64,000 bases of DNA from Nitrososphaerota archaeon (GCA_031256395.1 JAIRQQ010000086.1:37420-101419); one strand, 5' to 3'. Positions 21,493 through 41,619 are shown, counted from the stretch's first letter. Notes: generated by a model not told the origin, from the sequence alone. Made by a program: numbers and translations.

Positions 21493-23832
21493 TTATTGTT
21501 GGATCTTAAAGATGACATATCGGTCGTTTGAGTAGATGAGTTGTAGGATTTTGCTGTTGATGATTTGGGTATCGAGTTGGTTTCGATCATAGACAATGAA
21601 GCCTATGTTGTTTTCGCGGATGTCGTCATTGTAGTCGCGGGTCACTACTGTAATTTCGGGCATTAGCTCGCTAAGCATACTCTCCAAGTTGTTGGGACTG
21701 AGTTGGGGGTAGCTATTTTTTGCGAGTGTTAAGATCTGATAGGAACATGCCACTGTTTGATTAACCTCGACATTGCTAAATGAATATCGGAATCGCACCG
21801 CATCGATTTGGCGGTTTGCTAAAGCCCCAATATTTCCCCACTGTGGGCGGTCGGTAAAGTTGAAGGCGTAGGCGATGTCGTTTTGGCTATCATAGAGGCC
21901 TAAATAGCCATTTTTGAGATCAGTGTTTAAAAAGCTGGCAACTGCCCAATCGGTTTGGGGATTGCCGGTTTCTTGCTTGTTTACTCTGTTGCTATCTGCA
22001 TCCCAGGGGTTAACCCAATCCATAACTTGGGGGATTTGGGCTTTATCAAAGTTGAAGCTAAGATCAAAAAACGTGCTCAAATACAGTGTAACATTAGATA
22101 CCCCGCTTATCTGAGGTGTAACTGTCCATGAGACATCTAGGGGGCAGATACTGTTTTGAGCTTGCAGGGTCTTAGTTATGGTAAAGTTTTCGTTGGAGTA
22201 AATAAAGCTGATTTTTTCATTGCCGGTTTGATTTTCAAAGGTAATTTGTTTGCTAAGGGTTGAGAGGGGCAGTTGGTGTTCATTGCCGTTTTGGGTGAAA
22301 TACAAAAAGTCCCCATTAGTTGCGCTATAAGACGCTCGGTGCCAAACGTGATCTAGAGAGACATAGCCTTCATCGGTGGTGTCTCCTTTTGCTCCATAGG
22401 CTTTTAACAAAGTTTGGGGATGCTCTATCTCATAGGAGAGCGTTAGAACGGATTCTGTGATTAGGTTTCTTTGGATAACGGGGTTGGTTTGGGCAATCAC
22501 GGGTTTATCTGAGAATTGTTGGAACCAAAATCCTGGAATCTCGGTAACTACTACGGTTTGGTTTCCGGGATAGTGGTCTCTTAGCCAGATGCCTGCTTCG
22601 TAGGCTTTTATGTCGGTGGTGGCATAGAATGTGCCGGCTTCCATTATTTTCCCATACACAACATCTGAACGAACCCCCACCGCCAAACACGTTACCACAA
22701 TCAAACCTGTGGTGGCTACTTTAACCCAGGTTTTGCGGAATTGGGCTCGATGGTTGGCATAAAAGCGTGGTATTTTTTGTGCGGCATAGGCAACTGTGAC
22801 TGCTGCAAAAATGGCCATAAACGGTGTGAGGTAGTAGATAAACCACTGGAAGGGTAGATAGAGGCCAAAGAGGTGTGATTGGGCCAGTATAAAGGGCACA
22901 ATTAGTGCAAAGAGCAGACCTATGAAATATACTGTGCGTTTGGGAGTTTTGAGTTGTTTGTAGGCAAAATATACCCCTGCGATGGTTAGAAGCGTTATAA
23001 ATCCAAAGTTGACTATAAACGCGTTTAGAGTGGTGGCGCCTATTTGGTAGGCGTAGGCTTTTTGGCTAAAAAATACATGTTCTAGCATTACGCCTAGATA
23101 GCCTATCATGGCGCCAAAATAGTAGAGGAAAAAGACTATGCCTCCTCCAAGGACCAGTGCGGCTATGACTTTTAGGTAGGCGCCTCGGGTTTTGCCTTTG
23201 GATTTTTTGAGCATATAGAGTAGCACTGGGATTAACACCAGTACGGCTACAAAGGTTGCGAGTTGGTGGGCCATCATGACTGAGAATGCAGCAAAGAAGG
23301 TGACCATGAGGTAGCCGAATTTTTCAATTGCTAGGGGCAAATAGATTAGCAGTAGCATCAAAAATGCTATGCCCAAGGCGGTTGTGCTGCCGCCCCATTG
23401 GTTGAGTTCAAAGACTGGAAAACAGAATAACAATAAAATTGCGGCGATGGCGCCGGTTTTTTTGCTAAAGACTCGAGAGGTGAGCAGATAGACTGACATG
23501 ATCATAAGCCAGTCAACAATAACTGCTAGGATCTTGACTAGAAAGATGAGTTGTCCGATGTCGCTTGCACCGCTTAGCGATATGAACATAGCCAAAACAA
23601 TTTGATAGAGCGGGGGAGTCCAGCCTAGGTTGCCTAAGGGGATTTGTCCGGTGTTTAGAAATATGCGTGCTTTCTCAAGATGTACTGATGGATCATTACC
23701 CAAAATTACTCCATTCATCGATAGGATGGAGTAGAAGAGAATTATAATAACCGCTGAGAAAACTGTTATGAATGCCAGTTCAAGTTTCTTTTTATCGTTT
23801 AGCAGGGTTTGTATTGCGGCGGTTGGGTTCAA
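21493..23832 (-). CDS. Polytopic GT-C/STT3-like membrane protein, subtype A copy 1
   Basis: About 12 TM then a soluble domain; GNDPSVH, WTPPLY, WGG, AHQL, EAGIWLRDHYP...VVV...GFWF. Confidence 0.75.
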   Translation of the reverse strand: MNPTAAIQTLLNDKKKLELAFITVFSAVIIILFYSILSMNGVILGNDPSVHLEKARIFLNTGQIPLGNLGWTPPLYQIVLAMFISLSGASDIGQLIFLVKILAVIVDWLMIMSVYLLTSRVFSKKTGAIAAILLLFCFPVFELNQWGGSTTALGIAFLMLLLIYLPLAIEKFGYLMVTFFAAFSVMMAHQLATFVAVLVLIPVLLYMLKKSKGKTRGAYLKVIAALVLGGGIVFFLYYFGAMIGYLGVMLEHVFFSQKAYAYQIGATTLNAFIVNFGFITLLTIAGVYFAYKQLKTPKRTVYFIGLLFALIVPFILAQSHLFGLYLPFQWFIYYLTPFMAIFAAVTVAYAAQKIPRFYANHRAQFRKTWVKVATTGLIVVTCLAVGVRSDVVYGKIMEAGTFYATTDIKAYEAGIWLRDHYPGNQTVVVTEIPGFWFQQFSDKPVIAQTNPVIQRNLITESVLTLSYEIEHPQTLLKAYGAKGDTTDEGYVSLDHVWHRASYSATNGDFLYFTQNGNEHQLPLSTLSKQITFENQTGNEKISFIYSNENFTITKTLQAQNSICPLDVSWTVTPQISGVSNVTLYLSTFFDLSFNFDKAQIPQVMDWVNPWDADSNRVNKQETGNPQTDWAVASFLNTDLKNGYLGLYDSQNDIAYAFNFTDRPQWGNIGALANRQIDAVRFRYSFSNVEVNQTVACSYQILTLAKNSYPQLSPNNLESMLSELMPEITVVTRDYNDDIRENNIGFIVYDRNQLDTQIINSKILQLIYSNDRYVIFKIQQ

Positions 23833-26144
23833 TCTTGGTTTGGATCCCCGTTTATTCTAAAGATTGCAACTTCTTTGTTAATAAACACAAGGCTAAAGGT
23901 TGGATCAAGACGAAACTTGGGTGTGATTTTGGCTTCTGTTGGATCACTTAGACGACAGATAACATAGGAGACGCTTCTGGCTTGCAGCTCAAAACGATAA
24001 TCAAAGATGGACAAGGCTTGGTCTTTTTCCATAGGCTCTAATGCCGTAACTAGATTATCGGTTACTATTTGGCTAAATGCTTTGTTTATGGTTGTGGGGT
24101 TGGTGTATAGGTCTGGCTTATTAGATGCCGAGTAGGCGCCTGAGAGTATTTGGATTTCTCCTTGGGGTTGATCACCCAAACAATAGCTCAGCTCTATAAC
24201 TTTCACAACCTCTGAGTCACCTATTGTGATAAGATCCACATCTTCAGGGGGGGTGGTAAAAATTAGCTGTCCAAAGGCTTTGGTACCGGTCTCCACTAGA
24301 GCAATGGTGGCTTTGTTGTTGTGGGGTACTTGAAAGCCTGTGGTTTCAACATCGATATGCACTCGATTAAAGACCACCTCTGGATGGAGGCTGGTTAGTG
24401 TTGAGGTTAAATTAGCAAATCGTGTGTTGCGATAAAGTGTTGTTGAGAGCGTATAGTCAAAGTCGGTGTTGCCGCGTACTACTGTTATTTTTGCTTGGGT
24501 TTCATCGCTTTGTATGGTCATGTCTTTTACGGGAAGTTCTGAGAGTCTAAGGGCTGGTTGAGTTTTGCCGTTGAGTTGGTATTCGATTTTTGTGTTTTCA
24601 CTATTGAAAGTAAAAAATGAATAGGTATAGTAGGTCCAGTTTTGTGCGACTAGGATTTGGGGATTGTGGCGGGCTAGATATCCGCCATCATCACGGACTT
24701 GAAGATAGCCGTTATCAATTACATAGTTGGTGTCAAGAAGCGTTCGGGCAAATGTTGCGTTATCGACTTCTCGATTAACGGTTAGGTACTGCGGATCAAC
24801 CGCGCTAAGGGTGGGTCTTTGGGCAAATCCGCTAAACCACCAGCCATACCATGCATCCGCCACAAAAACGGCATTGGGGGCGGTGTTTGTTTTGGCCCAC
24901 TGAATTGCCTCCCAACCCGGCTGGGTCATGGCCTGATAGAAATCTTGGAGTGTGTGGCCCACCTCAAGGTCAGGTGTCATAAAGATGGGTAATGCTATAA
25001 AGGAGAATAGCAAAAAGAACGCTATAAACCCTGAGTAGAGCCGTTTTGTGGTCAGGGCGGCGGTTAGGCGTTTTGGGACTTGTTGCCATTTAGTTAGGTA
25101 GGTGTTTAGAGTTTTGGCAAAAAACGCTGAACCAAAATCAATTAGCACCGCTATAAACACCAATACCGGCAGGATAAGAAAATACATAAACCGATTATAA
25201 TCAACAGGAATGCCCACTAAGTAGCTCTGAGTTAGAATCAGAGGCAGAAACACCCACATAGAGAGAAAGAACGCGGGCAAGGTGAGGGTTTTTTTGTAGA
25301 ATTTCTTAGAGAATACAAAAAAAGCAATAACCGCTCCAAAGAGCGGCAACACAATATCTAACGGTAATAGCTGAGCCGAGAGGGTGGCTCCAGCAATCTC
25401 ACTTGAACCATACTCACTTAGATAGGCTGGAATTGCCTTGATCAAAAACGGCAAAACCAAAACTGCCCCCAAAACTATCGATAGTATCCAGTAAAACACA
25501 GTTTTTCTTGTGGTTTGAAACGCTTTGGGGAAGAGCAAAATAAACAATGCCACTCCCACAGTTATGCCTCCAAACATAGCGGCACTTAGCGAATGGGTCA
25601 GAAACAGGGTGGCCGTTAAAATTGAGGTGGCAATTAGAAATGGCACTTTGGAGAAGCGGTCTTTTTGGATATAGAGATAAAATGTTAAGGGAATTAGCAT
25701 AAGGGTTACGATGTTGGGGTAGCCTGCCCAAAACAGCATCTCAAGGTCAAAGCGTGAAATCACTGCTAAAAATGCAACGATAAAAGCGGCGGGGGTGGAC
25801 CAGACTTTTTTGGTTATCAAAAATGCACATACTACGGTTAGTGCTGAGAAGAGACCCACAACCACTGCGTGTGCTATGTATTCAGGCAGGCCGGTTAGTA
25901 GTATGGTGCTTGTTGTGAAAATATGATAGCCTGGAAAAGTTAGTGAGACCCCCCCGCCTATGTGATAATAGTTGTAGAGAAAATCGGTGGGTCCTGAGCC
26001 GGTGATGGAGTAGATGACACTGTTGTGTAGTCCAATGTCTGCACCCGGCGGAAATCCCGACCAGAACAGCAAAAGCATCCGATACACAAACGCGAACACA
26101 AATATGGCAAGTACCACGATATAGTTTCTGGTCGATTGTAGCAT
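23829..26144 (-). CDS. Polytopic GT-C/STT3-like membrane protein, subtype B copy 1
   Basis: GADIGLH, FPGYH, WAGYPN, THSLS, EAIQWAKTNT..NAVFVADAWYGWW...A.RPT; 4-bp overlap with A1. Confidence 0.75.
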   Translation of the reverse strand: MLQSTRNYIVVLAIFVFAFVYRMLLLFWSGFPPGADIGLHNSVIYSITGSGPTDFLYNYYHIGGGVSLTFPGYHIFTTSTILLTGLPEYIAHAVVVGLFSALTVVCAFLITKKVWSTPAAFIVAFLAVISRFDLEMLFWAGYPNIVTLMLIPLTFYLYIQKDRFSKVPFLIATSILTATLFLTHSLSAAMFGGITVGVALFILLFPKAFQTTRKTVFYWILSIVLGAVLVLPFLIKAIPAYLSEYGSSEIAGATLSAQLLPLDIVLPLFGAVIAFFVFSKKFYKKTLTLPAFFLSMWVFLPLILTQSYLVGIPVDYNRFMYFLILPVLVFIAVLIDFGSAFFAKTLNTYLTKWQQVPKRLTAALTTKRLYSGFIAFFLLFSFIALPIFMTPDLEVGHTLQDFYQAMTQPGWEAIQWAKTNTAPNAVFVADAWYGWWFSGFAQRPTLSAVDPQYLTVNREVDNATFARTLLDTNYVIDNGYLQVRDDGGYLARHNPQILVAQNWTYYTYSFFTFNSENTKIEYQLNGKTQPALRLSELPVKDMTIQSDETQAKITVVRGNTDFDYTLSTTLYRNTRFANLTSTLTSLHPEVVFNRVHIDVETTGFQVPHNNKATIALVETGTKAFGQLIFTTPPEDVDLITIGDSEVVKVIELSYCLGDQPQGEIQILSGAYSASNKPDLYTNPTTINKAFSQIVTDNLVTALEPMEKDQALSIFDYRFELQARSVSYVICRLSDPTEAKITPKFRLDPTFSLVFINKEVAIFRINGDPNQD

Positions 26145-26244
26145 TTACTTTACCGCTTGAGATACATCGTCTGATTTGTTGTTGGTAAAAGGTTAAATAT
26201 GGATTTCGAGTATAAAAAGCCCAGAGTATACAAACAGGAAAAAG

Positions 26245-26679
26245 GTGTTTAATATGTCATGGCTTAAATCTATGATGGAAAAAGAACCACCAGAACCAGA
26301 GAATCCATTAGGTATAGTAGTTATCGGCAACATCGAACCAGACATGCATGACACAGCAAAAGAAGCAGTCCGCCGCACACTAAAACGCGCAGGCTTCAAA
26401 ACCATTGACGTCGGAAAAAGCGTTGCACCCCAAGTATTTATCGACAAAGTAAAAGAAAACAATGCAAACCTAATCGCACTCTCAGTCAACACTGTCCCAG
26501 CAAAAAACAACCTAGCAAAACTTGATGAACTCTTAAAAGCAGCAGGCCTCAAAGACAAAGTCGGCATTATCATGGGCGGCGCCGCAGTCAAGAAAGAAGA
26601 TGCAGACGAATTCGGCGCATTCTTTGGCAAAAACAAAGAAGAAGCACCAGAACTCGCAAAGAAAGCAATCAAGAAATAA
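26245..26679 (+). CDS. Stand-alone corrinoid (B12-binding) protein lacking the helical cap
   Basis: VVIGNIEPDMHDTAK (DxH), AGFKTIDVG, LIALS, IMGGA; only ~140 aa. Confidence 0.85.
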   Translation: MFNMSWLKSMMEKEPPEPENPLGIVVIGNIEPDMHDTAKEAVRRTLKRAGFKTIDVGKSVAPQVFIDKVKENNANLIALSVNTVPAKNNLAKLDELLKAAGLKDKVGIIMGGAAVKKEDADEFGAFFGKNKEEAPELAKKAIKK

Positions 26680-26696
26680 TCGTAGAAGTGACCTAG

Positions 26697-27608
26697 ATGT
26701 CATTTATATTCAATACCCCACAAAAAACATACGATATTGGGAACGCCAAAATTGGCGGTCAACCAGGCGAAAACCCAACTTTTCTGATTGCTTCAATCTT
26801 CTGGCTAGGCCAAAAGATGGTAACAGATGCCAACAAAGGTATCTTTGACCAAAAAGCAGCTGAAGACGTTATCAACATAATCCAAACCCAAAGCGATATC
26901 ACCGGCGTAAAGTTTGCACTAGACATCGTCGGCACAACCGAAACTGCATTTGAAAAATACATCGACTTTATCCCCTCACACACCGACGCCCCACTCATGC
27001 TCGACGCAATGAGTCCAAAGACCCGTATGGCTGCCGCAAACTTGGCAAAAAAGATGGGTCTAACTGACAGATGCATCTACAACTCTATCTATAAAGGCGT
27101 AACCGAAGCAGAACTTGCAAACCTCAAAGAAAGCGGCATCAAAATGTCCATTGTTCTAGCAGACGATCCAAAAGACACAACCCTTGAAGGCAAAATGAAC
27201 GTTCTAGTCGAAGCACTAGCTATGGCTGATAGAGCCGGTATTACAAAACCACTCGTCGACACAGCAGTTCCCGCATTCGAACCAGACATGGGTTCATCTG
27301 TACGCGCCATACCAATCATGAAAGAAAAGTATGGTCACCCTGTAGGTCTAGGAAGCGGTAACCTTGTCACAACCATGGGCTGGGTTAAATCAAGCTTTGA
27401 AAAAGAATTCCGCAAAGGTACCGTCTGTTCAACCAACACCATCATGCAAATGGCAGGCGCCAACTGGCTCATGACCGGACCAATCGAGCAAGCACAATGG
27501 GTCTTCCCAGCAGTAGCAATCACTGACACATACCTCGCATCCATCGGCGCAGAACTAGGCACAAGACCAACCGACGAAACCCACCCGATCTACAAAGCTT
27601 TCATGTAA
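26697..27608 (+). CDS. mtrH: MtrH/MtgA-family methyl-pterin:corrinoid methyltransferase
   Basis: F...QKTYDIG..KIGGQPGENPT.L..SIF..GQK.V.D...GIFD; IYNSI; KEKYGHP.G.G. Confidence 0.9.
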   Translation: MSFIFNTPQKTYDIGNAKIGGQPGENPTFLIASIFWLGQKMVTDANKGIFDQKAAEDVINIIQTQSDITGVKFALDIVGTTETAFEKYIDFIPSHTDAPLMLDAMSPKTRMAAANLAKKMGLTDRCIYNSIYKGVTEAELANLKESGIKMSIVLADDPKDTTLEGKMNVLVEALAMADRAGITKPLVDTAVPAFEPDMGSSVRAIPIMKEKYGHPVGLGSGNLVTTMGWVKSSFEKEFRKGTVCSTNTIMQMAGANWLMTGPIEQAQWVFPAVAITDTYLASIGAELGTRPTDETHPIYKAFM

Positions 27609-27650
27609 AATTCCCTTCCTACTCTTTTTATTTTTTTTAGAGTATTTAAC

Positions 27651-28043
27651 TTGAAACCCCTCAAATGGCTCGCAATAATTCTCATCTTCACAGCCCTAAC
27701 CCTGCTTGTAACCTACCTCCTCCCAGTTCCAAACGACGTAGAATTCTCCTACAACCTCATCCCACGCTACATCTTTAGCTTCACATTCATCGCATTCATA
27801 CCCGGCTACTGCCTAGTCAACATACTATTCACCGGCAAAAACAAACTCGATTTCATCGAAGAACTCGTCCTCTCAGTCGCTCTGAGCTTTGGCTTAACAG
27901 GGTTATTGGGATTGTTCTTAGGCCTCTCCCCCATAGGCATCAACTTTACCTCCGTAACAGTTTCACTAAGCCTAATGGTGCTGGTCCTTGCAGTTATCGC
28001 CTATATTCGAAAACTACGAGAGACGGATGCGCAAAGCGCGTAA
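27651..28043 (+). CDS. DUF1616-like 4-TM membrane protein
   Basis: FIPGY.L..ILF......D.IE.LVLSVALS..L..L.GL.L. Confidence 0.75.
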   Translation: MKPLKWLAIILIFTALTLLVTYLLPVPNDVEFSYNLIPRYIFSFTFIAFIPGYCLVNILFTGKNKLDFIEELVLSVALSFGLTGLLGLFLGLSPIGINFTSVTVSLSLMVLVLAVIAYIRKLRETDAQSA

Positions 28044-29396
28044 CAAATATGCCCCCGATGTTTTCACAGCTGATCGCCCATAGGTTCCGCCCTTACGCAT
28101 CATATGTAGCACATAGCCAGGTCGCAGGTAAAACTGCTGATAGGCCTTATAGCGCAATTGCGCCAACTTTTCCATACTCATCGTAGGCGTCTCAAAGATG
28201 GGCCCTGCAGTGTCATATTTATCAAAATCCGTCACACGTAGCCAGCCATTTTTAACAACTTGATCATACATAGGTGTCCCTGGATAGGGTGTGGCTAAAT
28301 AGAAACCCACATCCTCTGGATTTAGTTGTTGCACAAAACGAATTGTTTGCTTAGCCGTCTGCTCAGTCTCTCCTGGAAAACCCAAAACCACATTAGCAAT
28401 AGTCATCAACCCCACATCATGAGCAGTTTTGTAGGCTTGACGGGTTTGTTCTAATTTTATACTCTTATTCATAGCACTCAAAACTGCCTCAGAACCCGAC
28501 TCCACACCCATCCAAACAGCGATGCATCCTGCATCTTTCATGGTCTTTAACAGTTCCCGATCCACCATGTCCACGCGGGTGCCGCAGTCCCAAATCAATT
28601 TAAGATTACGACTATGAAGCTCTTTGCAGATCTGAAGCACACGCTCCCGATCCACACTAAAAGCATCATCATAGAAAGTAACTTGATCTACACCATAGGT
28701 TTGGTGCACAAACTCCATTTCATCCACAACATTTTTCGCACTACGCATACGATACCCACGGCCAAACATGCGCACCGTGCTACAAAAATCACACCAATAA
28801 ACACACCCACGACTGCTAACCAAGGGAATGAGCAGTTTGCCGTTATGTTTGAGATTATCAAGCGGCATCAAATGATGAGCTGGAAAGGGAATACTGTCAA
28901 GATCTTTAATGTAGGGCCGATCAGGGGTACGGCAAATCTTATCACCCTCACGATAAGTAATGCCCAACACACCCGATAGGTTTTGATGACTTTCTAGTTT
29001 TTCTGCCAAATCAACCAAAGTCTCCTCACCCTCGCCACGCACAATAAGATCAACCGCAGGGAATTCTCTTAGGGTATTTTCATCCCAAAACGTGCCATGG
29101 CTCCCCCCGACTGCAGTGATGGCACTTGGCTGGGCCTCTTTGGCGATGGTTAGAATCTGCATGGCTGATTTGTAGAGCAGGGTAGTGGCAGTTGCACCGA
29201 TAAAATCAGAGGGCGTTTGTAAAATCCGATCCCGAAAAGTGTCATAGCTGAGCTTTTCGGCTTGACAGTCAATAATTTTGACTTGGTGACCTGCTCTCTC
29301 AGCAACAGCGGCTAGATATCCAAGACCCAACGGTATAAACGGCGGATGAGAATGCACACTGGGCGGATATGGCGGATTGACTAAGGTTATCTTCAT
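28014..29396 (-). CDS. B12-binding radical SAM protein (paralog 1)
   Basis: LVNPPYP...PLGLGYL, GGSH.T, SSRGCVYWCDFC, YDDAF, GVESG, GFPGET. Confidence 0.93.
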   Translation of the reverse strand: MKITLVNPPYPPSVHSHPPFIPLGLGYLAAVAERAGHQVKIIDCQAEKLSYDTFRDRILQTPSDFIGATATTLLYKSAMQILTIAKEAQPSAITAVGGSHGTFWDENTLREFPAVDLIVRGEGEETLVDLAEKLESHQNLSGVLGITYREGDKICRTPDRPYIKDLDSIPFPAHHLMPLDNLKHNGKLLIPLVSSRGCVYWCDFCSTVRMFGRGYRMRSAKNVVDEMEFVHQTYGVDQVTFYDDAFSVDRERVLQICKELHSRNLKLIWDCGTRVDMVDRELLKTMKDAGCIAVWMGVESGSEAVLSAMNKSIKLEQTRQAYKTAHDVGLMTIANVVLGFPGETEQTAKQTIRFVQQLNPEDVGFYLATPYPGTPMYDQVVKNGWLRVTDFDKYDTAGPIFETPTMSMEKLAQLRYKAYQQFYLRPGYVLHMMRKGGTYGRSAVKTSGAYLLRALRIRLS

Positions 29397-29706
29397 GAGG
29401 ATTGCCTGAGGGGACTTCTAAATAATAGAAACATATAATGCTTTCTTAACCAGCCAGCACACGTAATTCACTTAGTTGATGATTTAGGGACTCACTTGAT
29501 TAAATCCACTAACAACACAATAATACAACAACAAAATTCACATATCAACCCACAAAATGTTTGAAACCGAAGAAAAAAATTGAAAATAGAAAAACAACTA
29601 CACCCCTAGCAATCTACTACTAATGCTAATATGTTCTAACTTTTTGATAGTTTGCATTTTATGATACTGTTTGTTTGGTGTTAAACGTATAGCCTTAAGC
29701 GGGTTG

Positions 29707-32874: not shown

Positions 32875-32876
32875 CT

Positions 32877-34013
32877 TTGAGCGAGCATTTCCTTGATAGC
32901 AAAAACATGAGCCTTTGGTATAAAGCAAAAGCATTTGCAGGCATACTAACCACCCAAACCTTTGTAGGTCCCTATTTTGCAACAGTGGGTGATAGATATC
33001 AGTGTAATTACCGCTGTGTTTTCTGCGAGTGGTTTTCTCCGCTTGTAAAAAAGAAACGCCCCCAAGTGAGCGGTTTAGATTATTTGAGTGTGGATGTTTA
33101 CCAAAAACTGGTAAGCCAACTAAGCGCCTTGGGCACAAAGGTAATCTTGATTGGCAATATCGAAGAGCCCTTCCTAGATACAACCCTAATAGAGAAAATA
33201 CGCTACACAAAAGCCAACAATTTACAATGTTTTGTAATAACCAACGGTTCACTGTTAACCCCAAAAAACACTGAACAATTAGTTGATTTAGGGCTTGATT
33301 ATCTAAATATTAGCCTAAATGCAGGCTGCCCTCAAACCTATCCCAAAATACATACAACCGAAACTGAAGCTACATACCACCAAATAGTAGCCATGGTTAC
33401 CCACATCGAGGCCCTAAAAGCCGCAAAACATACACCATTTCCCCGTATAAGACTCTCCATGGTGGTTTGCAACCGAAACTATCAAGACATTCTCCAATTC
33501 ATAGAAATAGCGCATAGAACTGGTGTCAAAAACGTTCAGATTAAGCGCTTTATTTCGGTCACAAAAGAAATCCTTGACGAATTAGAACTGACCCCCCAAC
33601 AAGAAGAAGAAACCAAACAGTACATACAACAAGCCCTAACAATCGCAAAAAAACACAACATCCACCTAGACATGGAGTGGTCTGAGTGGACAGGCGCACA
33701 AAAAACCCCCACCGAAGCGCATATGCCTTGTTATTTTGGCTGGCTCTTTTGTGTAATAGATGCCGATGGTAACCTCTACCCCTGCTGTTTCCAAGAGCGT
33801 ACCCCCAACGCTCTTATTGGCAACATTGCAGAAACTAATTTCAAAACCCTCTGGAAATCAGAAAAATATCAAACTTTTAGAAAACAATCCAAAAACATAG
33901 CTGCCAGACGCCAACTAGGGTATCTGTGCAACCAACCCTCATGTTTCTATAACAACAAACAAGTTCACGATACCATACACAACCTCCATCTGCGCCTATC
34001 CAAACGCAAATAA
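32877..34013 (+). CDS. Radical SAM protein with twitch/SPASM domain
   Basis: CNYRCVFC; CYFGW...IDADGNLYPCC...IGNI...LW.S...C; start set at the TTG after the GGTGA SD (ORF track starts at 32844). Confidence 0.88.
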   Translation: MSEHFLDSKNMSLWYKAKAFAGILTTQTFVGPYFATVGDRYQCNYRCVFCEWFSPLVKKKRPQVSGLDYLSVDVYQKLVSQLSALGTKVILIGNIEEPFLDTTLIEKIRYTKANNLQCFVITNGSLLTPKNTEQLVDLGLDYLNISLNAGCPQTYPKIHTTETEATYHQIVAMVTHIEALKAAKHTPFPRIRLSMVVCNRNYQDILQFIEIAHRTGVKNVQIKRFISVTKEILDELELTPQQEEETKQYIQQALTIAKKHNIHLDMEWSEWTGAQKTPTEAHMPCYFGWLFCVIDADGNLYPCCFQERTPNALIGNIAETNFKTLWKSEKYQTFRKQSKNIAARRQLGYLCNQPSCFYNNKQVHDTIHNLHLRLSKRK

Positions 34014-34031
34014 CTCTTTGTGTCCTTTGTG

Positions 34032-36368
34032 CTATTTCCAAATATGTGTTTGATTGTAGCTGTCTAAGATTTTGAAAATATCGTATTTGCTGTTTGAGTA
34101 AACCAACTCTAAAAATTCACACTGGGCAAGGTCGGGTAAAAATATCTCACTTAGTGCTGAGGAAGTTTGTAGGTTGAATTGGGTTTTATCATAAACAATC
34201 AAGCTGATGTTGTTTTCAGCAATGTATTCTTGGTAATTGTGGACTGAGGGGGTGAATTGATCAACTTTGAGGGTAAACAAATTTGCTAACTCGTTTGGTT
34301 GAAGGGCTGGATAGCTGTCTTTTGTAACTGCTAAAACTTGATATTGACACTGCACCGTTTGGTTGACTCCGATTTCTTTAAAATTATATTGGTAGCTTAT
34401 GGCATTGATTTGGCGATTAGCTAATGCATCAATACTACCCAAATCAGGCACATCAATAAAGTTGAGCGCAAAGGCGGTTTGTTTGGTTTGATCATAGAAC
34501 CCAATGTAGTGATCGCTTAGTTCTGAGCTTGAAAAGTTGACACTTACCCAGCCTTTGTTAGGTGTCGTTTTTGTGGGCATATCCCAGGGGTTAGTCCATT
34601 CCATGAATTGCGGTATTTGGGCTTTATCGAAATAGAATTCAAGATCAAAATCAGTGCTTAGCACCAATTGCGCATTGGTTATCTCTCCGTTTAGAGGTGT
34701 GATAGACCATGAGACATTGAGGGGATAGGCGTCTTTTTGGAAAAGTATTGTCTGAGTTAGAACTACTTGGTTGTTATAGTAGGTGAACTCTACTGATTTT
34801 TCCTCAAAAGAGTTGTTTAGAGTTACAGTTTTGGTCAGTTCGCAGAGTGCCACGGTATGGTTTACTGCGTTTTGGGTAAATGATAAGGTGTCTTTGGATA
34901 GTGACAAATAGGCTACTCTGTTCCATAGCTGATTTATGTAGACATAGTTTTCGCTTGTGACATTGCCGTTTTGCTCATAGGTTCTTAGCATGGTTTGGGG
35001 TCCTTGAATTTCATAGTGTAGATTTAGAACTGCATCAGCAACTGGGTTTGCACCATACCAATGGTAGGTCTGAGCAATAACTGGGTTGTCTGAGAAAACT
35101 GCAAACCACTCACCGGGATTTAACGTAACAACGATGATCTCACTGGGATAGTTTTGCTTAACCCAAGTTGCGGCTTCATAGGTGCGCATATCCGCTCTAT
35201 TGTTAAACGCACCCGCTACCATTACTTGGCTGTAGGTGTTGTAGACTTGCAAACCAAATATTGGACACACCACTACCACAATTAAGCCCACAGCAACGAC
35301 TTTGTGTTTTTTATCTGCCTTTTTGAGCATTGCAAAAATTTTTTGTCCAATAAAGACCATGCAAACAGCACCAAAAATCGCTATAGGTGGAGCCAAATAG
35401 TACGTGAACCACTCAAAGGGTAAATAGAAACCCAACAGGTAGGACTTGGCAAAAAACAACGGCACACAAAAACTCAACAACAAAATAACAAACCCTATCC
35501 GCTTGTTTTGTTTTTTATGTTGACTATAGCTGATGGCTATGCCGGCTAGGGCGAGAAATTGTATAGCACCAAAGTAGAGCAGAAACGCCTCAAAACTCGT
35601 ATATGGAATATCAACCGCATAGGCTTTGTTACCAAAAAATATGTGATAAATAACCACATCCAGATGGCTTGCGATGGCTGGATAGTAAAACATAAAGAAC
35701 GCAAGCATACCCCCCAAAGCAGTCAAGAGAAATGCTTTGAGATAGGCGCCTCTAAATTTTATCATCAACAAAAGCATAGCCGGCAGCATAATTACCGCGG
35801 CAAGAAACGCGCTGAGCTGATGGGCAAGAAAAACACTAAACGCAACAAAAAACATAACCACGACATAGCTGACTTGTTTGACTGCTAAATACGACACATA
35901 AAACAGTAGAAGCAAAAAAGACATACCAAGCGCAGTCGTGTAGCCGCCCCAGGTGTTGAGAAAATAAATCAGATAGCATAATGATATGAAAATAGCTGAG
36001 AGCGCACCTACTTTTTTGTTAAAAAATTTACTACCAACCAAATAAACCGAGAGAAATAACAACCAATTTGCCATCACTGCTAAAACTTTCTCAACAACCA
36101 ATATCTGCACTGCGTTTAGCGTCCCACCAAATAGGCTGCATATGGCTATTAGAATTTCAAAAAGCGGCGGCACCCAGCCTGAGTTATCTAATGGAATCTG
36201 ACCTGTCTCTAAAAATATTTGCGCTTTTAGAAGATGAACCGCGGGGTCTAGTCCCAAAACTAACCCATTCATTGATATGAGCAAATAACAAAGAACCACC
36301 ACAACCAAAGAAAAGCCGCTGACAAATGCGACCTCTAATTTTTTCTCCCTTGTCAGTTTATCTAGCAA
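34032..36368 (-). CDS. Polytopic GT-C/STT3-like membrane protein, subtype A copy 2
   Basis: GLDPAVH, WVPPLF, WGGYTT, AHQL, EAATWVKQNYP..IVV...GEWF. Confidence 0.75.
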   Translation of the reverse strand: MLDKLTREKKLEVAFVSGFSLVVVVLCYLLISMNGLVLGLDPAVHLLKAQIFLETGQIPLDNSGWVPPLFEILIAICSLFGGTLNAVQILVVEKVLAVMANWLLFLSVYLVGSKFFNKKVGALSAIFISLCYLIYFLNTWGGYTTALGMSFLLLLFYVSYLAVKQVSYVVVMFFVAFSVFLAHQLSAFLAAVIMLPAMLLLMIKFRGAYLKAFLLTALGGMLAFFMFYYPAIASHLDVVIYHIFFGNKAYAVDIPYTSFEAFLLYFGAIQFLALAGIAISYSQHKKQNKRIGFVILLLSFCVPLFFAKSYLLGFYLPFEWFTYYLAPPIAIFGAVCMVFIGQKIFAMLKKADKKHKVVAVGLIVVVVCPIFGLQVYNTYSQVMVAGAFNNRADMRTYEAATWVKQNYPSEIIVVTLNPGEWFAVFSDNPVIAQTYHWYGANPVADAVLNLHYEIQGPQTMLRTYEQNGNVTSENYVYINQLWNRVAYLSLSKDTLSFTQNAVNHTVALCELTKTVTLNNSFEEKSVEFTYYNNQVVLTQTILFQKDAYPLNVSWSITPLNGEITNAQLVLSTDFDLEFYFDKAQIPQFMEWTNPWDMPTKTTPNKGWVSVNFSSSELSDHYIGFYDQTKQTAFALNFIDVPDLGSIDALANRQINAISYQYNFKEIGVNQTVQCQYQVLAVTKDSYPALQPNELANLFTLKVDQFTPSVHNYQEYIAENNISLIVYDKTQFNLQTSSALSEIFLPDLAQCEFLELVYSNSKYDIFKILDSYNQTHIWK

Positions 36369-36380
36369 TGTGGCCTATCC

Positions 36381-38684
36381 TTAATTGTGAGTGTTTGTTT
36401 CAACCTTAAAGATGGCCACTTTATTGTTTATAAATACAGAACTAAATACTGGGTCATTGGCATATTTGGGATTTAATTCAAAATTGCGGTTCACAACATA
36501 TGAGACATTGTATTGTTGCAGAGCAACTCTGTAATCAAAAATAGTCATAGCTAACTCGGGAACACCCGCGGGGGTCTGTAGATTGGTTCTAAGAATCTGC
36601 TCAAGACTCTCCATGCCTGTCAGATTTTGCAGATCAATATTTGCTGCAGAAAACATACCCACCAGAATCTGAACCTCAACCCCTGACATATCTTGCATAG
36701 CATAGGATAGCTGAGTGGTACCGCGATCTTGTAAGTACCGGCTGGTTACTGTTGGGGTGGAGTGTGCAAAAATTAGCTGTCCACATATGTTTGCCTCTAA
36801 ATCTAAAACTGCTACTGTTTCATTGGTTGTTTGTTGGAGCAATGTGCCTGGAGAATCAACTACCAACTCTAGTCGATCTAGGGTTATGTTGGGGTTGAGG
36901 CTCTGAGCCGATAGGGTCAGGTTTGCAAATTGACTTACGGGGGTGAGTGTTACAATTTCTAAAAAGCTAACCTCACTGTTTGCTCGATTAACAACTATCG
37001 CTGGACTGCTATCTGGGTCTGCATAAGCAAGTCCCATATCAACAACCGGCAAATCTGACACATTGACTACTTGGGTCCCCTTTTCGTTGTGCTCATAGTG
37101 CAGAGTAATTTGGCTACTGTTAAACGCAAAAAACTCGTATGGTTCAATGGTTTCTTTTAGGTTTACCAAAAATAGTGGGTTGTGTCTGCCCAAATAGCCT
37201 CCATCTTCTCGAACCTGAACATACCCATTGTCCAGCACATAATTGGTATTTAGGAGATAGGATACATTTCTTGCCATATTCACCTCACCCATAATCGATA
37301 TGGCCTGCAAATCAATACTGCTAATAGTCGGACGCTGACCAAACCCCGCCATCCACCACCCATAGGACATATCTGAAACAAACACCGCATCTGCCGAAGT
37401 GTTCTGCTTAGCCCACCTGATTGCCTGATAACCCTCCGCATCCATAACCTGATAAAACTCTTGATGTCTAACATCCCACGGAAAACGCAGGATAAACGCG
37501 CCAAACATTAAACCCAGCAAAATCAAAATCAAAAAAACCGAGCACCCCTTCCTACGTTGTTCTGTATTCAACGGTATTTTCCGATCTAACTTGCAAAACA
37601 GCCATTTTTTCTTATTTCTACAAATATTACAAATATTGACTCTAAAGGGGTATTTTGAGATCGAATCAATGATTAGTGCAAATAGAATCAGAACTGGATG
37701 AATAAAAAAATAGGGAAACCGAAGCCCATCTAAATACAATCCCGTCCGATAACTCTGAGTTAGCAATAAAGGCACCAAAAGCCACATAGCAAGCAAAAAT
37801 ACCGAAAAAACAAAGAACCGGTGCTTAATTTTCTTTGAAAACCAAAAATATGCTCCCACACCAACAAAAAGCGTCAACACAGCCCAAATGGGAATGGTAC
37901 GCTCCAAAATCAATACCTGAGCAATATCTATAGAACCCACCAACACAGTGCTCTCACTCAAATAAACCGGTATGGCACTCACCAAAAAAGGCGACACCAA
38001 AACCAACCCAACAACAAGCGGCAATGCCAAGCTAAGACTAAACTTTCTTGATCTATCAAACAACCTTGGAAAAACAAGAACACACCCCAGAGCAAGTATG
38101 ACTATACCACTAAATACCGCCGCACTCAAAGAATGCGTCAAAAATATAGCTGCGGCCACAAGAGATGCCGAAACATAAAATGCCCCCCGAGAAAGCTTAT
38201 CACGTCTAAGAAACAAATAAAACATCACCGGCATCAAAAACAATACAACAGCATTGGGATAACCCCCCCAACAAAGAATCTCAACATCCAACGATGAAAA
38301 CGTAACAAGCAAAGCAACAATAAACGCTGTTTGCGCACTCCACACAACCCGCGTAACCAAAAAAACAGCCAAAACAATAAACGCCGAAAACAAAGCTGCA
38401 ACCAAAGCCTGCGCCACATAACTAGACAACCCCGTAAAAAGTATCACCTGAGCCGCAACAATATGAAACCCCGGAAACGCAAGCCCCAACTCACCCCCCA
38501 TCTGATAAAAATTCTGAAGAAAATTAGTATGCCCCCCTTGCGTAATCGAGTTAATAACACTAGCATGACAGCCAATATCTGCCCCCGGAGGAAAAGTCTG
38601 CCCAAGCAACATCACTAACCGATAAACAAACGCAAAAACAAAGATACCCACCAAAAGAACCTGCTTCTTAGAGCAACTAACCAA
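36381..38684 (-). CDS. Polytopic GT-C/STT3-like membrane protein, subtype B copy 3
   Basis: GADIGCH, FPGFH, WGGYPN, THSLS, QAIRWAKQNT..DAVFVSDMSYGWW. Confidence 0.75.
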   Translation of the reverse strand: MVSCSKKQVLLVGIFVFAFVYRLVMLLGQTFPPGADIGCHASVINSITQGGHTNFLQNFYQMGGELGLAFPGFHIVAAQVILFTGLSSYVAQALVAALFSAFIVLAVFLVTRVVWSAQTAFIVALLVTFSSLDVEILCWGGYPNAVVLFLMPVMFYLFLRRDKLSRGAFYVSASLVAAAIFLTHSLSAAVFSGIVILALGCVLVFPRLFDRSRKFSLSLALPLVVGLVLVSPFLVSAIPVYLSESTVLVGSIDIAQVLILERTIPIWAVLTLFVGVGAYFWFSKKIKHRFFVFSVFLLAMWLLVPLLLTQSYRTGLYLDGLRFPYFFIHPVLILFALIIDSISKYPFRVNICNICRNKKKWLFCKLDRKIPLNTEQRRKGCSVFLILILLGLMFGAFILRFPWDVRHQEFYQVMDAEGYQAIRWAKQNTSADAVFVSDMSYGWWMAGFGQRPTISSIDLQAISIMGEVNMARNVSYLLNTNYVLDNGYVQVREDGGYLGRHNPLFLVNLKETIEPYEFFAFNSSQITLHYEHNEKGTQVVNVSDLPVVDMGLAYADPDSSPAIVVNRANSEVSFLEIVTLTPVSQFANLTLSAQSLNPNITLDRLELVVDSPGTLLQQTTNETVAVLDLEANICGQLIFAHSTPTVTSRYLQDRGTTQLSYAMQDMSGVEVQILVGMFSAANIDLQNLTGMESLEQILRTNLQTPAGVPELAMTIFDYRVALQQYNVSYVVNRNFELNPKYANDPVFSSVFINNKVAIFKVETNTHN

Positions 38685-38806
38685 TCCGATACCTCACACA
38701 TCTGCAAAACCACCCTGAATGGCGTTCCCCACAAGTTAGCGTATAACACCTAAAAAACAGGCACCTAAAAAACAAAAACCCCGCAACCCAACCAAAGCGG
38801 CAATGT

Positions 38807-39901
38807 TTACTCATTTGACTTTGCACTCGCCATTACAACATCTAACAATTCCCGTGCAGTAACATCCCATGAGAAATTACGCGAATACTCTAACGCATTT
38901 CTTGAAAATCGCTCCCTTAATTCTCCATCTCTTAGTAATGCCATGATCTTATCTGCCATAGCTTCAATATCCCCGCTCTCCACCAAAAAACCCGTCACAT
39001 TGTCTTGAACAGAATCTCTTAAACCAGGTGCCGCATAAGCCACCGTAGGTACACCCAAGGCATTTGCCTCAATAACATTAAGACCCCACCCCTCACGAAC
39101 CCCCGGATTTACCAACACCCAACTTTGCTCAATTAATTTTCGCCGCTCAACATTGCCCAACGACCCATAAAATCGTACTCCCCGACAAAACACCTTCTCT
39201 AAATCACGCCTAATTGGGCCATCCCCAATAATCCATAACTCTGCCTCGGGAAATTCTGCCTTAACTTTCTCAAATGCCCTCAAAGCATGGCTTGGCCTCT
39301 TAGCCTTCTTTAACCGCCCACAATAGACAATAACCGGCTGGCTACTTTTGGGAGAAACCTGAGACAGGGGTTCAAAGTTCACTCCCTCTGGAATAATAAA
39401 TAAGCGCTTCAAACCCAGAGCCGCTAAATCCCTATAGGTACTATCTGACACCGTAACAGTCGGTATGGTTACATATTTTTGTAGCCACCTATCCTCCAAG
39501 TAATGCCCTATGTGGTTTAGGGGAAACCTTGTTTCATAAAACCAGTATTCTCTTGCCAGCTGATGAATCAAAGCAACAACCACCTCATCATTTTTGGCAA
39601 AAGTATGAGCAAAGAAAGGCCTGGTGTTTATTTCATCAATTATCAAATCAAAATGCTCCCCTCTAAAACGATTGAGATAGAATTTTTTTGCCGCAGAAAA
39701 AACCGAAAAACGCCCGCCTGATCGAATAATCTTGATACCGTCAATAATTTCTTCTCGTATACATCTTGGAAATGCGGCAGTAAACAATGTTACTTCATGC
39801 CCTGCCTTAACCCACCGCATGGCGACTTCATGGGTAAAAATCTCTGCCCCACCCATCTCCGGATTACACCAGCACCGCCAGTTGTAAACAAGAATCTTCA
39901 T
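38807..39901 (-). CDS. GT4 family glycosyltransferase
   Basis: GGAE, GRLKKAK, REGWGLNVIEANALGVP. Confidence 0.92.
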   Translation of the reverse strand: MKILVYNWRCWCNPEMGGAEIFTHEVAMRWVKAGHEVTLFTAAFPRCIREEIIDGIKIIRSGGRFSVFSAAKKFYLNRFRGEHFDLIIDEINTRPFFAHTFAKNDEVVVALIHQLAREYWFYETRFPLNHIGHYLEDRWLQKYVTIPTVTVSDSTYRDLAALGLKRLFIIPEGVNFEPLSQVSPKSSQPVIVYCGRLKKAKRPSHALRAFEKVKAEFPEAELWIIGDGPIRRDLEKVFCRGVRFYGSLGNVERRKLIEQSWVLVNPGVREGWGLNVIEANALGVPTVAYAAPGLRDSVQDNVTGFLVESGDIEAMADKIMALLRDGELRERFSRNALEYSRNFSWDVTARELLDVVMASAKSNE

Positions 39902-40116
39902 CGACCAACCAACCTCTTTACTCTGGTATGGGTTACTGCGGCTCCATAGGGGTATGCTCTAACGCTATAGGGGTCTCTCTGAAAATTAAGAAACGACTCC
40001 AAAGACCGAACAGAATCAAGAACTCTGTTGGTGTGCCTTGCGGTTGCAATAGAGTTTTTCTCGTTAAACCCTACAACCACAGCGAAGAGTTCTAGATACC
40101 CCCTTTCCTCAGTCAT
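39898..40116 (-). pseudogene. 72-aa ORF, possible internally deleted GT2 remnant
   Basis: LELFAVVVGFNEKNSI resembles the GT2 N-terminal LSVVVPAFNE motif; no DxD core; 4-bp overlap with the GT4 start. Confidence 0.35.
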
Positions 40117-40233
40117 GTTTTAACTGACAAGTGGGGTAGTGATAAAAAGTGTTCTGGTCTACATTTCTTGACTAAGTGTAGTCTAGACTTCTTGACTGTT
40201 GACTATGTCAACTTAGTTTACCTGAAAAAGAGG

Positions 40234-41619
40234 TTAGGAGAGTTTTATGTGCATGGCTCGTAGTGCATATGCAGCTGAGGTTTTTAGACCAGATCTGCCA
40301 TAGGTTCCGCCTCGGCGCATCATCTTAAAGATGTAACCTGGGCGAAGGTAGAATTTTTGGTGAGCTTTGTATTTGATTTCGCGGATTTTCTCCATACTTA
40401 GCTCAGGGGTCTCAAAGGTTGGGGTGGCGGTGTCGTATTTGTTAAAGTCAGTGACGCGTAACCAGCCATTTTTGATAACTTCTTCATACATGGGGGTTCC
40501 TGGATAGGGGGTTGCGATGTAGCAGCCGATGTCATCGGGGTTGAGTGAGTTGATAAAGTTGACTGTTTCCCATGCTGTTTCTTCGGTTTCACCTGGGAAG
40601 CCGATGACTGAGCTTGCAATGGTCATCATTCCGGCTTTTTGTGCGAGTTTGAAGGCGTCGCGTACTTGGTCGCGATTAATTTTTTTGTGCATTTTACCCA
40701 AGATTTTTTCTGAACCCGATTCTACGCCAAACCATACTGTTATACAACCTGCATCATGCATTTTTTCAAGTAGTTCTTTGTCAACTGCGTCTACACGGGT
40801 TTCACAGTCCCATTCGACATCGAGTTTCTTTGCTTTGATATCTGCGCACATTGTTAGGGTGTGTTGTCGGTTGATGGTGAAGGCGTCATCGTAGAAGGTA
40901 AATTGGCTCTCGCCGTATTTGTTTTGGAGCATTTCCATCTCGTTTACGACTGTGTGGGGGTTGCGGGTGCGGTATCCGCGGCCAAACATGCGTACTGTGC
41001 TGCAGAAGTCACACCACTGAACACATCCTCGGCTGGTGACTAGGGGGAAGATGGTTTTGCCCATGCGATGAAACGCGTCTATGGGTAACAAGTGATAAGC
41101 GGGGGTGGGCAATGAATCTAGGTCAACAAGGAAGGGTCGGTCTTCGTTACGGGTAATTTTTCCTTCTGTGTTGCGATAAGTTATTCCCAAAACACCTGCA
41201 AAACTCTGTTTGTCTTGTAGGCGTTGAAGTAATTCCATAAATGTGATTTCGCCTTCTCGGCGTACAATCACATCAATCGCGGAACATTCGTTTAGGGCGT
41301 TTTCATCCCAAAACGTAACGTGGCTTCCACCCATCATGGTGATGGCTGTTGGGTGTTCTTCTTTGGCAACTGTTAGAACATCTTTGGCTGAATTGTAGAG
41401 CAACGTTGTTGCAGTTATACCAATAACATCTGGTTTTTCTTTACTGATGCGGTGTTTGAATGTCTCCACAGTTAAACGTTCAGCCTGACAGTCGATAACG
41501 TTAACTTCATGACCTGCTTTCTCAGCCACAGCTCCCAAATATGCAATGCCTAATGGAATAAACGGAGGATGAGCATGTGCATTTGGAGGATAGGGCGGGT
41601 TAATGAGTGTAACCTTCAC
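40234..41619 (-). CDS. B12-binding radical SAM protein (paralog 2)
   Basis: Aligns end to end with 28014..29396; TSRGCVQWCDFC. Confidence 0.93.
   Translation of the reverse strand: MKVTLINPPYPPNAHAHPPFIPLGIAYLGAVAEKAGHEVNVIDCQAERLTVETFKHRISKEKPDVIGITATTLLYNSAKDVLTVAKEEHPTAITMMGGSHVTFWDENALNECSAIDVIVRREGEITFMELLQRLQDKQSFAGVLGITYRNTEGKITRNEDRPFLVDLDSLPTPAYHLLPIDAFHRMGKTIFPLVTSRGCVQWCDFCSTVRMFGRGYRTRNPHTVVNEMEMLQNKYGESQFTFYDDAFTINRQHTLTMCADIKAKKLDVEWDCETRVDAVDKELLEKMHDAGCITVWFGVESGSEKILGKMHKKINRDQVRDAFKLAQKAGMMTIASSVIGFPGETEETAWETVNFINSLNPDDIGCYIATPYPGTPMYEEVIKNGWLRVTDFNKYDTATPTFETPELSMEKIREIKYKAHQKFYLRPGYIFKMMRRGGTYGRSGLKTSAAYALRAMHIKLS

Follow-up and report, generated by a model that had tools for sequence, protein, structure and literature searches.

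Positions 21493-41619 of a 64,000-nt stretch of DNA (the window; GCA_031256395.1 JAIRQQ010000086.1:37420-101419) from a termite-gut archaeon of the Bathyarchaeia subgroup Bathy-6 (Ca. Bathycorpusculum) encode five paralogous GT-C membrane proteins that define, as judged from their sequences, an unannotated clade of STT3/AglB relatives, and this STT3-family variant has a real, unexplained link to a corrinoid methyl-transfer module. The best supported reading is that of an accessory, sequon-blind STT3-type transferase for an envelope glycan, formed by members of two subfamilies (s2 and s1) and co-inherited with the methyl operon and with radical S-adenosylmethionine (SAM) enzymes that carry a B12-binding domain. 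The region is a composite of two modules; that its core is one envelope-modifying system, built on a Bathyarchaeia-specific offshoot of STT3/AglB/PglB, we hold to be an even proposition. Among the uncultured archaea of anoxic sediments, peat and termite guts, Bathyarchaeia rank with the most abundant, and to our knowledge nothing is known of their envelope.

Gene content was taken from an open reading frame (ORF) listing and from Pfam and NCBIfam scans, which recovered, at the same coordinates, every gene that a first-pass annotation of this DNA had named. The features and the conserved neighbours of the locus are the following.

21493-23832, minus strand: A, STT3-like GT-C protein of subfamily 1, degenerate partner of the core pair (TIGR04154, 3.4e-8)
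23829-26144, minus strand: B, STT3-like GT-C protein of subfamily 2, catalytic-looking member of the core pair (AlphaFold2, Foldseek, motif columns)
26145-26244: divergent promoter region between B and the corrinoid operon (core conserved in 76 loci)
26245-26679, plus strand: Corr, corrinoid protein without cap (Pfam B12-binding, 1.2e-13)
26697-27608, plus strand: MtrH-family methyl-pterin:corrinoid methyltransferase (Pfam MtrH, 2.7e-78)
27651-28043, plus strand: small DUF1616 membrane protein of 130 residues, third gene of the operon (Pfam DUF1616, 1.2e-17)
28014-29396, minus strand: F, class B (B12-domain) radical SAM enzyme, BchE/HpnJ-like (Pfam/NCBIfam)
29707-32019, minus strand: G, STT3-like GT-C protein of subfamily 2, cassette copy (53% identical to the first GT-C protein of locus L101)
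32131-32874, plus strand: CE4 polysaccharide deacetylase, cassette (Pfam Polysacc_deac_1, 3.7e-17)
32844-34013, plus strand: radical SAM/SPASM protein, cassette (below every curated family cut-off)
34032-36368, minus strand: J, STT3-like GT-C protein of subfamily 1, cassette pair (both acidic residues of external loop 2, EL2, lost)
36381-38684, minus strand: K, STT3-like GT-C protein of subfamily 2, cassette pair (54% identical to the second GT-C protein of L101)
38807-39901, minus strand: GT4 glycosyltransferase, cassette (Pfam Glycos_transf_1, 3.6e-34; 68% identical to the GT4 of L101)
39898-40116, minus strand: GT2 remnant of 72 codons (at the position of the intact GT2 in L101)
40234-41619, minus strand: M, class B radical SAM enzyme, old paralogue of F (61% identical to F)
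42109-43011, plus strand: GH42-like Cys4 TIM barrel, cytoplasmic, conserved neighbour (weak DUF4015 match; AlphaFold2; syntenic in most loci)
45260-46261, minus strand: CbiZ adenosylcobinamide amidohydrolase, conserved neighbour (Pfam CbiZ, 6.6e-46; synteny)
46528-47430, plus strand: second Cys4 TIM-barrel paralogue, conserved neighbour (34% identical to 42109-43011; synteny)

Fold and motif states of the STT3-like proteins

The five membrane proteins (A, B, G, J and K; 767-779 residues, all encoded on the minus strand) fall into subfamily 1, with A and J (44% identical to each other), and subfamily 2, with B, G and K (39-42%), the identity across the two being about 20%. In all five, hydropathy places 11-14 hydrophobic segments within the first ~400 residues, followed by a soluble domain of ~370 residues. 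The AlphaFold2 model of B, obtained from 93 homologues, has a mean pLDDT (predicted local distance difference test) of 91.5, and its top 18 Foldseek matches in the Protein Data Bank (PDB) are human STT3A/B, yeast Stt3, Archaeoglobus AglB and Campylobacter PglB (E from 5e-9 to 2e-6, TM-score about 0.4), with the GT-C enzymes AftA, ArnT, DPY19 and ALG9 at lower ranks. The GT-C fold that had been predicted for these proteins is thus borne out by the model, with STT3/AglB/PglB (CAZy GT66) as closest relatives, which share the arrangement of about 11-13 N-terminal transmembrane helices and an external C-terminal domain of ~370 residues. They differ from these in the C-terminal domain, where the β-sandwich of B also matches the N-terminal domains of GH65/GH94 phosphorylases. 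The close database relatives are all labelled "hypothetical protein" and carry no Pfam domain, and a hidden Markov model scan of 1.84 billion representative proteins returned only 179 clusters (50% identity) at E <= 1e-30.

The catalytic positions were located by hhalign comparison of the subfamily profiles with that of 28 canonical AglBs of the same order. Subfamily 1 aligned with a probability of 92.7% over 466 columns, and in both subfamilies the Asp of external loop 1 (EL1) aligns with the Asp of the E-F-D-P motif of canonical AglB. The N-terminal alignment of subfamily 2 (probability 31%) sets D36 (B numbering throughout) on that Asp and the F-D-x-E of EL2 on the F-F-D-x-E of AglB. With three subfamily-2 sequences against a single AglB, hhalign covered the WWDYG region alone; this homologous stretch aligns unambiguously, VFVADAWYGWW in B standing opposite VVVMWWDYGNW in the AglB of the same genome.

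A closer inspection of the motif columns in 62 subfamily-2 and 31 subfamily-1 sequences showed that D36 is invariant (62/62 and 31/31, 93/93 in total), as are H40 and H184 (each 62/62 and 31/31), and that E135 is a Glu in 61/62 and 30/31, respectively. The two subfamilies part at D133, present in 62/62 sequences of subfamily 2 and replaced in subfamily 1 by a hydrophobic residue in at least 30/31 (Asp in 0/31), and at R318, also present in 62/62 and a Trp in 25/31 of subfamily 1. In the alignment of the five proteins J has I-x-F where B has D-x-E, and in the subfamily-1 profile alignment the Glu of S-V-A-E, the AglB form of the EL5 TIXE/SVSE motif, lies opposite an Ala. WWDYG is kept in none of the 93 sequences: subfamily 2 reads D-A-[L/W]-Y-G-W-W (DAWYG in B) and subfamily 1 T-E-[V/I]-P-G. 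The WWD of this motif reads the Ser/Thr at position +2 of the N-x-S/T sequon. Exactly one canonical AglB was found in 39 of 41 related genomes, the window's own included, and WWDYG is intact in all 29 canonical copies extracted from them. Because the motif is replaced and nearly every related genome has one canonical AglB besides, the five proteins are, on this reading of their sequences, accessory members of the STT3 family that fail the WWDYG test for an N-oligosaccharyltransferase. The near invariance of the subfamily-2 residues despite an overall identity of 44-60% argues for retained catalysis, and the abandonment of the sequon-reading motif next to preserved catalytic residues points to a glycosylation chemistry unlike N-glycosylation.

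The gene of subfamily 2 always precedes that of subfamily 1; the two lie 8 nt apart in the median and no more than 30 nt apart in 51 of 54 loci, a spacing that would suit the synthesis of a catalytic and a degenerate partner in stoichiometric amounts. Tandem s2/s1 pairs additional to the canonical gene have no counterpart in AglB. Heteromeric GT-C enzymes in which two paralogues are encoded or act together are found in PMT1/PMT2 and EmbA/EmbB; by analogy with these, the paired genes seen here may encode a heteromer, which would differ from both examples in the loss of catalytic residues from one partner.

A role in glycosyl transfer is supported chiefly by more distant GT-C relatives, which lie within glycan-synthesis neighbourhoods: GT4-GTC-GT2-GT4 in L115; a PMT, two GT2, epimerases, a UDP-glucose dehydrogenase, a GT87 and a methyltransferase in L117; a GT4, a 919-residue PMT_2/DUF6541 protein and a radical SAM protein with a weak SPASM match in L118; and an exosortase-family gene in L116. 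In L118 (10333-14866) the weak-SPASM protein and a BtuCDF-like ABC transporter (FecCD, Peripla_BP_2) both lie next to the distant GT-C gene, a further case in which genes for glycans adjoin genes for the uptake of corrinoids or metals.

The same genome has a sixth STT3-like copy that is not linked to the others (739 residues, 35% identical to G; C36:23493-25697, L031 8885-11104), with an InlB-repeat surface protein, a DUF354 glycosyltransferase-like gene and a SAM hydroxide adenosyltransferase as neighbours, and similarly scoring unlinked copies of ~740-755 residues occur in several other genomes of the genus (e.g. G007, G025 and G005). In G004 (C36/C46), G016 (C8) and G028 (C16/C28) STT3-like genes appear in many pieces with internal stops, which suggests that the pair is decaying in some lineages.

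A conserved core and an inserted cassette

Comparison by tblastn of the window proteins with 100 related loci, retrieved with a search seeded with the subfamily-2 alignment, revealed a recurring block composed of orf300, CbiZ, the weak-DUF4015 TIM barrel, (M), F, and the DUF1616-MtrH-Corr operon divergent from s2-s1, the last arrangement being found in nearly all of about 100 loci. The CE4 deacetylase, the SPASM protein and the G/J/K-type copies were seen only in the window, in G025 (Ca. B. acetigenerans, which carries the same five-copy GT-C array) and in L101; among 20 genomes searched, CE4 was found only in G000 and G025. In L101 these genes stand by themselves, in the order SPASM, CE4, a 301-residue ORF, G-type GT-C, GT2, GT4 and K-type GT-C, and neither MtrH nor a corrinoid gene is found in their vicinity. 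In the closest relative, L034 (Ca. B. hydrogenotrophicum, proteins 86-99% identical), M and F are neighbours, and their ~800-bp spacer still contains pieces of GT4 (131 bp) and of G (259 bp) at 5882-6276, about 80% identical, as remains of a cassette that has been deleted. The ancestor of this lineage therefore had the cassette, which L034 lost later. G, CE4, the SPASM protein, J-K, GT4 and the GT2 remnant are thus a separable cassette inserted between F and M, and the earlier view of the 20 kb as a single pathway has to be abandoned, given the presence of the cassette in 2 of 20 genomes, its occurrence alone in L101 and its fragments in L034.

Two of the cassette genes call for comment. The CE4 protein scores 62.9 bits on Polysacc_deac_1, above the gathering cut-off of 23.1. 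The 72-codon ORF overlapping the start of GT4 begins with LELFAVVVGFNEKNSI, which matches residues 28-46 of the intact L101 GT2 (E 1e-3 for the N-terminus against the start of that protein); tblastn of the intact GT2 against the window returned nothing, and the remnant was recognized on reading the small ORFs upstream of GT4. Its N-terminal match and its position, the same as that of GT2 in L101, make the suspected GT2 remnant plausible. The contigs of L101 (CAWETL010000004.1) and L089 (CAWEFA010000034.1) are titled "uncultured Gemmatimonadales bacterium" and "uncultured Bacteroidetes bacterium", respectively; both carry Bathyarchaeia-type genes (49-95% protein identity to the window), and the bins are probably mislabelled or contaminated.

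The core is inherited and lost as a set. At the level of the order (61 genomes), 34 of the 36 home-genus genomes and one further genus carry the GT-C family, and MtrH (at least 49% identity), the cap-less Corr and the small DUF1616 protein are confined to the same two genera; the remaining genera hold MtrH paralogues at 31-40% identity and longer corrinoid-protein reading frames. At the level of the class (251 genomes, 96 genera), the sets were scored at E <= 1e-100 for the pair, E <= 1e-17 for the small DUF1616 and E <= 1e-150 for radical SAM proteins of the F/M clade, the trio being represented by the small DUF1616, with MtrH and Corr beside it where checked. Pair, trio and F/M-clade enzyme occur in exactly the same 32 genomes, from six genera: 13 of g1 and 13 of g23, g26, g27 and g28 (home family) and 6 of g16 (second family). 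All three are absent from seven other genera of the home family and from two of the second. The DUF2090 gene, a neighbour taken as control, is limited to 7 home-genus genomes and does not share the pattern of the core; the TIM-barrel family follows it nearly, being missing from four home-genus genomes that keep pair and trio. Coordinates place pair and trio next to each other in 26/26 genomes of the home family f1. Of the co-localization in relatives that had been proposed for the whole locus, the part concerning the pair, Corr-MtrH-DUF1616 and F/M mostly holds across six genera, and the part concerning the cassette genes does not. The first-pass annotation also knew of no characterized locus combining these parts, and no account of one was found in the literature searched, where the nearest description is that of the corrinoid protein (CoP)-MtrH couple alone (PMC7886697).

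The corrinoid operon and the B12 radical SAM enzymes

Corr consists of the Rossmann B12 domain only, with the D-x-H signature kept within D-M-H-D-T-A and without the helical cap; it aligns to residues 84-214 of the 224 of MttC only, and to model positions 68-187 of the 197 of TIGR02370 (78.6 bits, under the cut-off of 215). In this it departs from canonical methyl-corrinoid systems, the corrinoid proteins of which are capped and of about 210 residues. The sequence is 86-99% identical across the genus. MtrH reaches 271 bits with the NCBIfam MtrH family, slightly below the cut-off of 287, and 261.7 bits with TIGR01114, the subunit of the Mtr complex (cut-off 271.4); no other Mtr subunit family appeared among the Pfam matches of the window ORFs scanned. 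The third protein carries the N-terminal region of DUF1616 with about four transmembrane segments by hydropathy, and its presence in nearly all of the ~100 related loci marks it as a conserved small gene and not a fragment. In G236 (C4:28226-28584), where pair, MtrH and Corr are intact, stop codons interrupt this gene, owing either to pseudogenization or to faulty assembly. A literature search for DUF1616 returned only an entry in a Haloferax glycoproteome, without functional information.

Glycan modification by Gtr systems combines GtrA, a small four-helix flippase, with GtrB, a GT2, and GtrC, a GT-C enzyme. A small four-helix membrane protein beside GT-C transferases recalls this arrangement, by analogy only: the DUF1616 protein has no GtrA Pfam match, and a corrinoid protein and MtrH stand in place of the GT2. 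Co-occurrence of DUF1616 homologues with GT-C relatives in distant Bathyarchaeia was dropped as evidence of linkage, because the homologues of L119 and L121 are longer paralogues beside the genes for ribosomal protein S19e and eIF6, and no MtrH or corrinoid gene lies near the DUF1616 homologues in any distant locus fetched.

The spacer between Corr and the s2 gene measures 106-134 bp and contains a core of ~45 bp, at least 90% conserved in 76 loci, in which TTACTCT-GGGCTTTTTATACTCGAAAT-CATATTTAA holds two back-to-back TATA-like boxes. The first two genes of the operon correspond to the CoP-MtrH couple that Loh et al. 2021 (PMC7886697) reported in all Bathy-6 genomes, with MtrH as the only mtr subunit and without a substrate methyltransferase. 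These authors left the acceptor open and proposed that the couple shuttles methyl groups between tetrahydromethanopterin (H4MPT) and some methylated substrate or acceptor, in methylotrophic acetogenesis or in anabolism; the main text of that paper makes no mention of a third operon gene, of the missing cap domain or of a divergent GT-C pair. A corrinoid protein beside an isolated mtrH, with neither a substrate-specific MT1 (MtaB-like) methyltransferase nor other mtr subunits, is the arrangement of this couple (PMC7886697) and of MtgA/MtoA-type methyl-corrinoid:pterin methyltransferases. The genomic setting of the couple is now concrete: its operon also encodes a membrane anchor, a GT-C pair lies on the far side of a common promoter, and B12 radical SAM enzymes are inherited along with it.

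The TIM barrels that accompany the operon were considered as the missing MT1 and rejected. They are cytoplasmic proteins of 300 residues with invariant C80, C117, C119 and C122, the pattern of the GH42 zinc site, and three or four paralogues per genome are always found near CbiZ and the corrinoid operon; those of the present genome lie at 42109-43011 and 46528-47430 of the window and at C35:608-1522 and C43:6848-7729. A sequence search of the PDB gave no match for the barrel. The AlphaFold2 model of 42109-43011 (pLDDT 94.8) matched glycoside-hydrolase-type barrels (Cwp19, GH156, GH42, GH29, GH20 and GH164), with no methyltransferase among the 50 Foldseek matches listed.

F and M share an N-terminal B12-binding domain and a CxxxCxxC radical SAM core, as do the class B enzymes BchE, HpnJ, AprD4 and the archaeal lipid modifiers. 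They had been described as near-twins; at 61% identity, and each with its own orthologues (75-98% identical) in other genomes, they are old paralogues instead. Nor is the label of radical methylases proven. Both score 245-256 bits on BchE, 230-238 on HpnJ and 235-246 on ApyD, far below the curated cut-offs of these families (481, 578 and 750, respectively), and the cut-offs of HpnR, PhpK, the TsrM-type family and the Mcr glutamine C-methyltransferase (TIGR04014) are not reached either. Among proteins of solved structure F comes closest to the diol dehydratase AprD4, and next to the radical SAM protein 9ccb, TokK and TsrM. The top matches BchE, HpnJ and AprD4 are not methylases, and the type of reaction (methylation, ring contraction, dehydration or desaturation) is not readable from these sequences. 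Orthologues of F (72-98% identical) adjoin the operon in most loci, and in relatives without the cassette M lies directly beside F; in four loci a different type of B12 radical SAM enzyme takes the position of F.

The region as a whole is an island of such enzymes. Within tens of kb of the locus, additional paralogues with a B12 domain are found at 10820-12313 of the window and, in the same genome, at C11:3178-4533, 7072-8442 and 20177-21490, and relatives cluster them likewise, with five in G052 (C1:449-467 kb) and six in G035 (C1:1000-1033 kb).

Working of the core and competing explanations

The core, composed of the B-A pair, the divergent Corr-MtrH-DUF1616 operon and the two BchE/HpnJ-like enzymes, could work as follows. 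Subfamily 2 (B, G and K) appears to keep the metal- and donor-binding residues of an oligosaccharyltransferase, with the sequon-reading WWD replaced, and subfamily 1 (A and J) to lack the leading acidic residue of catalytic motif two and, mostly, the Arg as well. The two would act as a heteromer of a catalytic and a non-catalytic partner that moves a lipid-linked glycan to a non-sequon acceptor at the outer face of the membrane, while ordinary N-glycosylation would stay with the single canonical AglB of the genome. The methyl-H4MPT:corrinoid couple, tethered to the membrane, may feed or withdraw methyl groups, and the radical SAM enzymes may remodel the lipid-linked sugar or its carrier. GT4, the decayed GT2, CE4, the SPASM protein, G and K-J make up a dispensable, strain-variable glycan cassette between F and M.

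The probability that the methyl module is functionally coupled to the GT-C pair we put at a little under one half. If so, one-carbon metabolism would be tied to the modification of surface glycans or lipids, a connection not described in the literature searched; if not, the single 20-kb pathway is still corrected to a conserved core and a decaying, strain-variable glycan cassette. In its strongest form the coupling would make one machine of Corr, MtrH, the four-helix DUF1616 anchor, the radical SAM enzymes and the sequon-blind heteromer, which either supplies envelope glycans or lipid-linked sugars with methyl groups directly from the Wood-Ljungdahl one-carbon pool, and not from SAM, or strips glycan methyl groups into that pool; the two versions taken together are unlikely.

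Several observations weigh against the proposed core system. The profile alignment of subfamily 2 with AglB is weak. About 15 loci have no radical SAM gene next to the core, and in g23, g26 and g28 the best F/M homologue lies mostly far from it or on another contig. The six genera may share ancestry, so that the perfect co-occurrence may reflect few evolutionary events, and no MtrH or corrinoid gene neighbours the distant GT-C relatives in the loci fetched. In g16 the trio is invariably accompanied by CbiZ, orf300 and two or three TIM barrels; two genomes have the pair next to it or no more than 3 kb away, one has it at a distance of 11 kb, and three, among them a 7-contig assembly, carry it on a different contig. 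Corr and MtrH (86-99% identical, 70-99% at the widest) evolve far more slowly than the GT-C proteins (44-60%), the pattern to be expected of a central metabolic enzyme next to surface proteins.

These last two points speak for the main rival explanation, in which the operon is a one-carbon metabolic module with no functional relation to the pair and their adjacency is an inherited gene order in a clade-specific island. The roles proposed by Loh et al. 2021 (PMC7886697) for the couple are precisely of this kind, and other archaea have CoP-MtrH couples without such GT-C genes. However, this MtrH subtype, the cap-less Corr and the small DUF1616 protein occur only in genomes with the pair, a pattern not shared by the control neighbour; the adjacency is unbroken in f1 and the compact bidirectional promoter is conserved; the last gene of the operon encodes a membrane protein; and a substrate-specific MT1 is missing, the Cys4 barrels resembling glycoside hydrolases and not MtaB-type enzymes. 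An unrelated metabolic module is, in our judgement, a possibility clearly short of even.

A second explanation places the target in lipids: the radical SAM enzymes would remodel tetraether lipids or their sugar head group, by ring contraction of the HpnJ or calditol type, methylation or desaturation, and the GT-C pair would attach or transfer a head-group sugar. The combination of GT4, CE4 and a B12 radical SAM enzyme resembles the HpnI/K/J logic of hopanoid synthesis, the HpnJ scores of F and M point in the same direction, and many B12-domain paralogues surround the locus in every genome. Archaeal enzymes of this class include cyclases, methylases and a desaturase, all acting on tetraether lipids: the ring synthase, the methylases of glycerol monoalkyl glycerol tetraethers (GMGT) and glycerol dialkyl glycerol tetraethers (GDGT) and the Bathyarchaeota tetraether desaturase (bioRxiv 10.1101/2025.10.20.683597). 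Yet F and M fall below every curated family cut-off, the substrate of AprD4, their best solved relative, is an aminoglycoside sugar, CE4 and GT4 are part of the dispensable cassette and not of the F/M core, the enzymes structurally nearest to the GT-C proteins have protein as the acceptor of their glycans, and the stretch examined yielded no gene for lipid synthesis (Tes, Grs). A lipid target is thus quite improbable, and neither the butanetriol/pentanetriol lipids nor the sugar C-methylation put forward by the first-pass annotation found support.

That the STT3-like proteins are no longer enzymes, serving instead as structural, receptor or scaffold proteins of the envelope, would agree with the loss of WWDYG in all 93 sequences, the further catalytic positions missing from subfamily 1 and the frequent pseudogenized or fragmented copies of G004, G016 and G028, but is very improbable in view of the conservation of D36, D133, R318 and E135 in subfamily 2 and of the relatives within GT2/GT4 operons.

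Other features of the window

In a search of window positions 18-48 kb for a cobalamin riboswitch or another RNA element, only a tRNA gene was found (21326-21401, Rfam 56 bits). It adjoins a 3.2-kb segment (18047-21239) with two Kelch-repeat genes (18076-19224, plus strand, and 19436-20878, minus strand) that is absent from the closest relative L034 and looks like a recent insertion beside the tRNA. Further upstream, at 6975-8144, the window encodes a S-adenosylmethionine synthetase of bacterial type, with three S-AdoMet_synt domains, in an archaeon; orthologues 83-86% identical to it lie ~8-10 kb upstream of the core in L073, L083 and L084.

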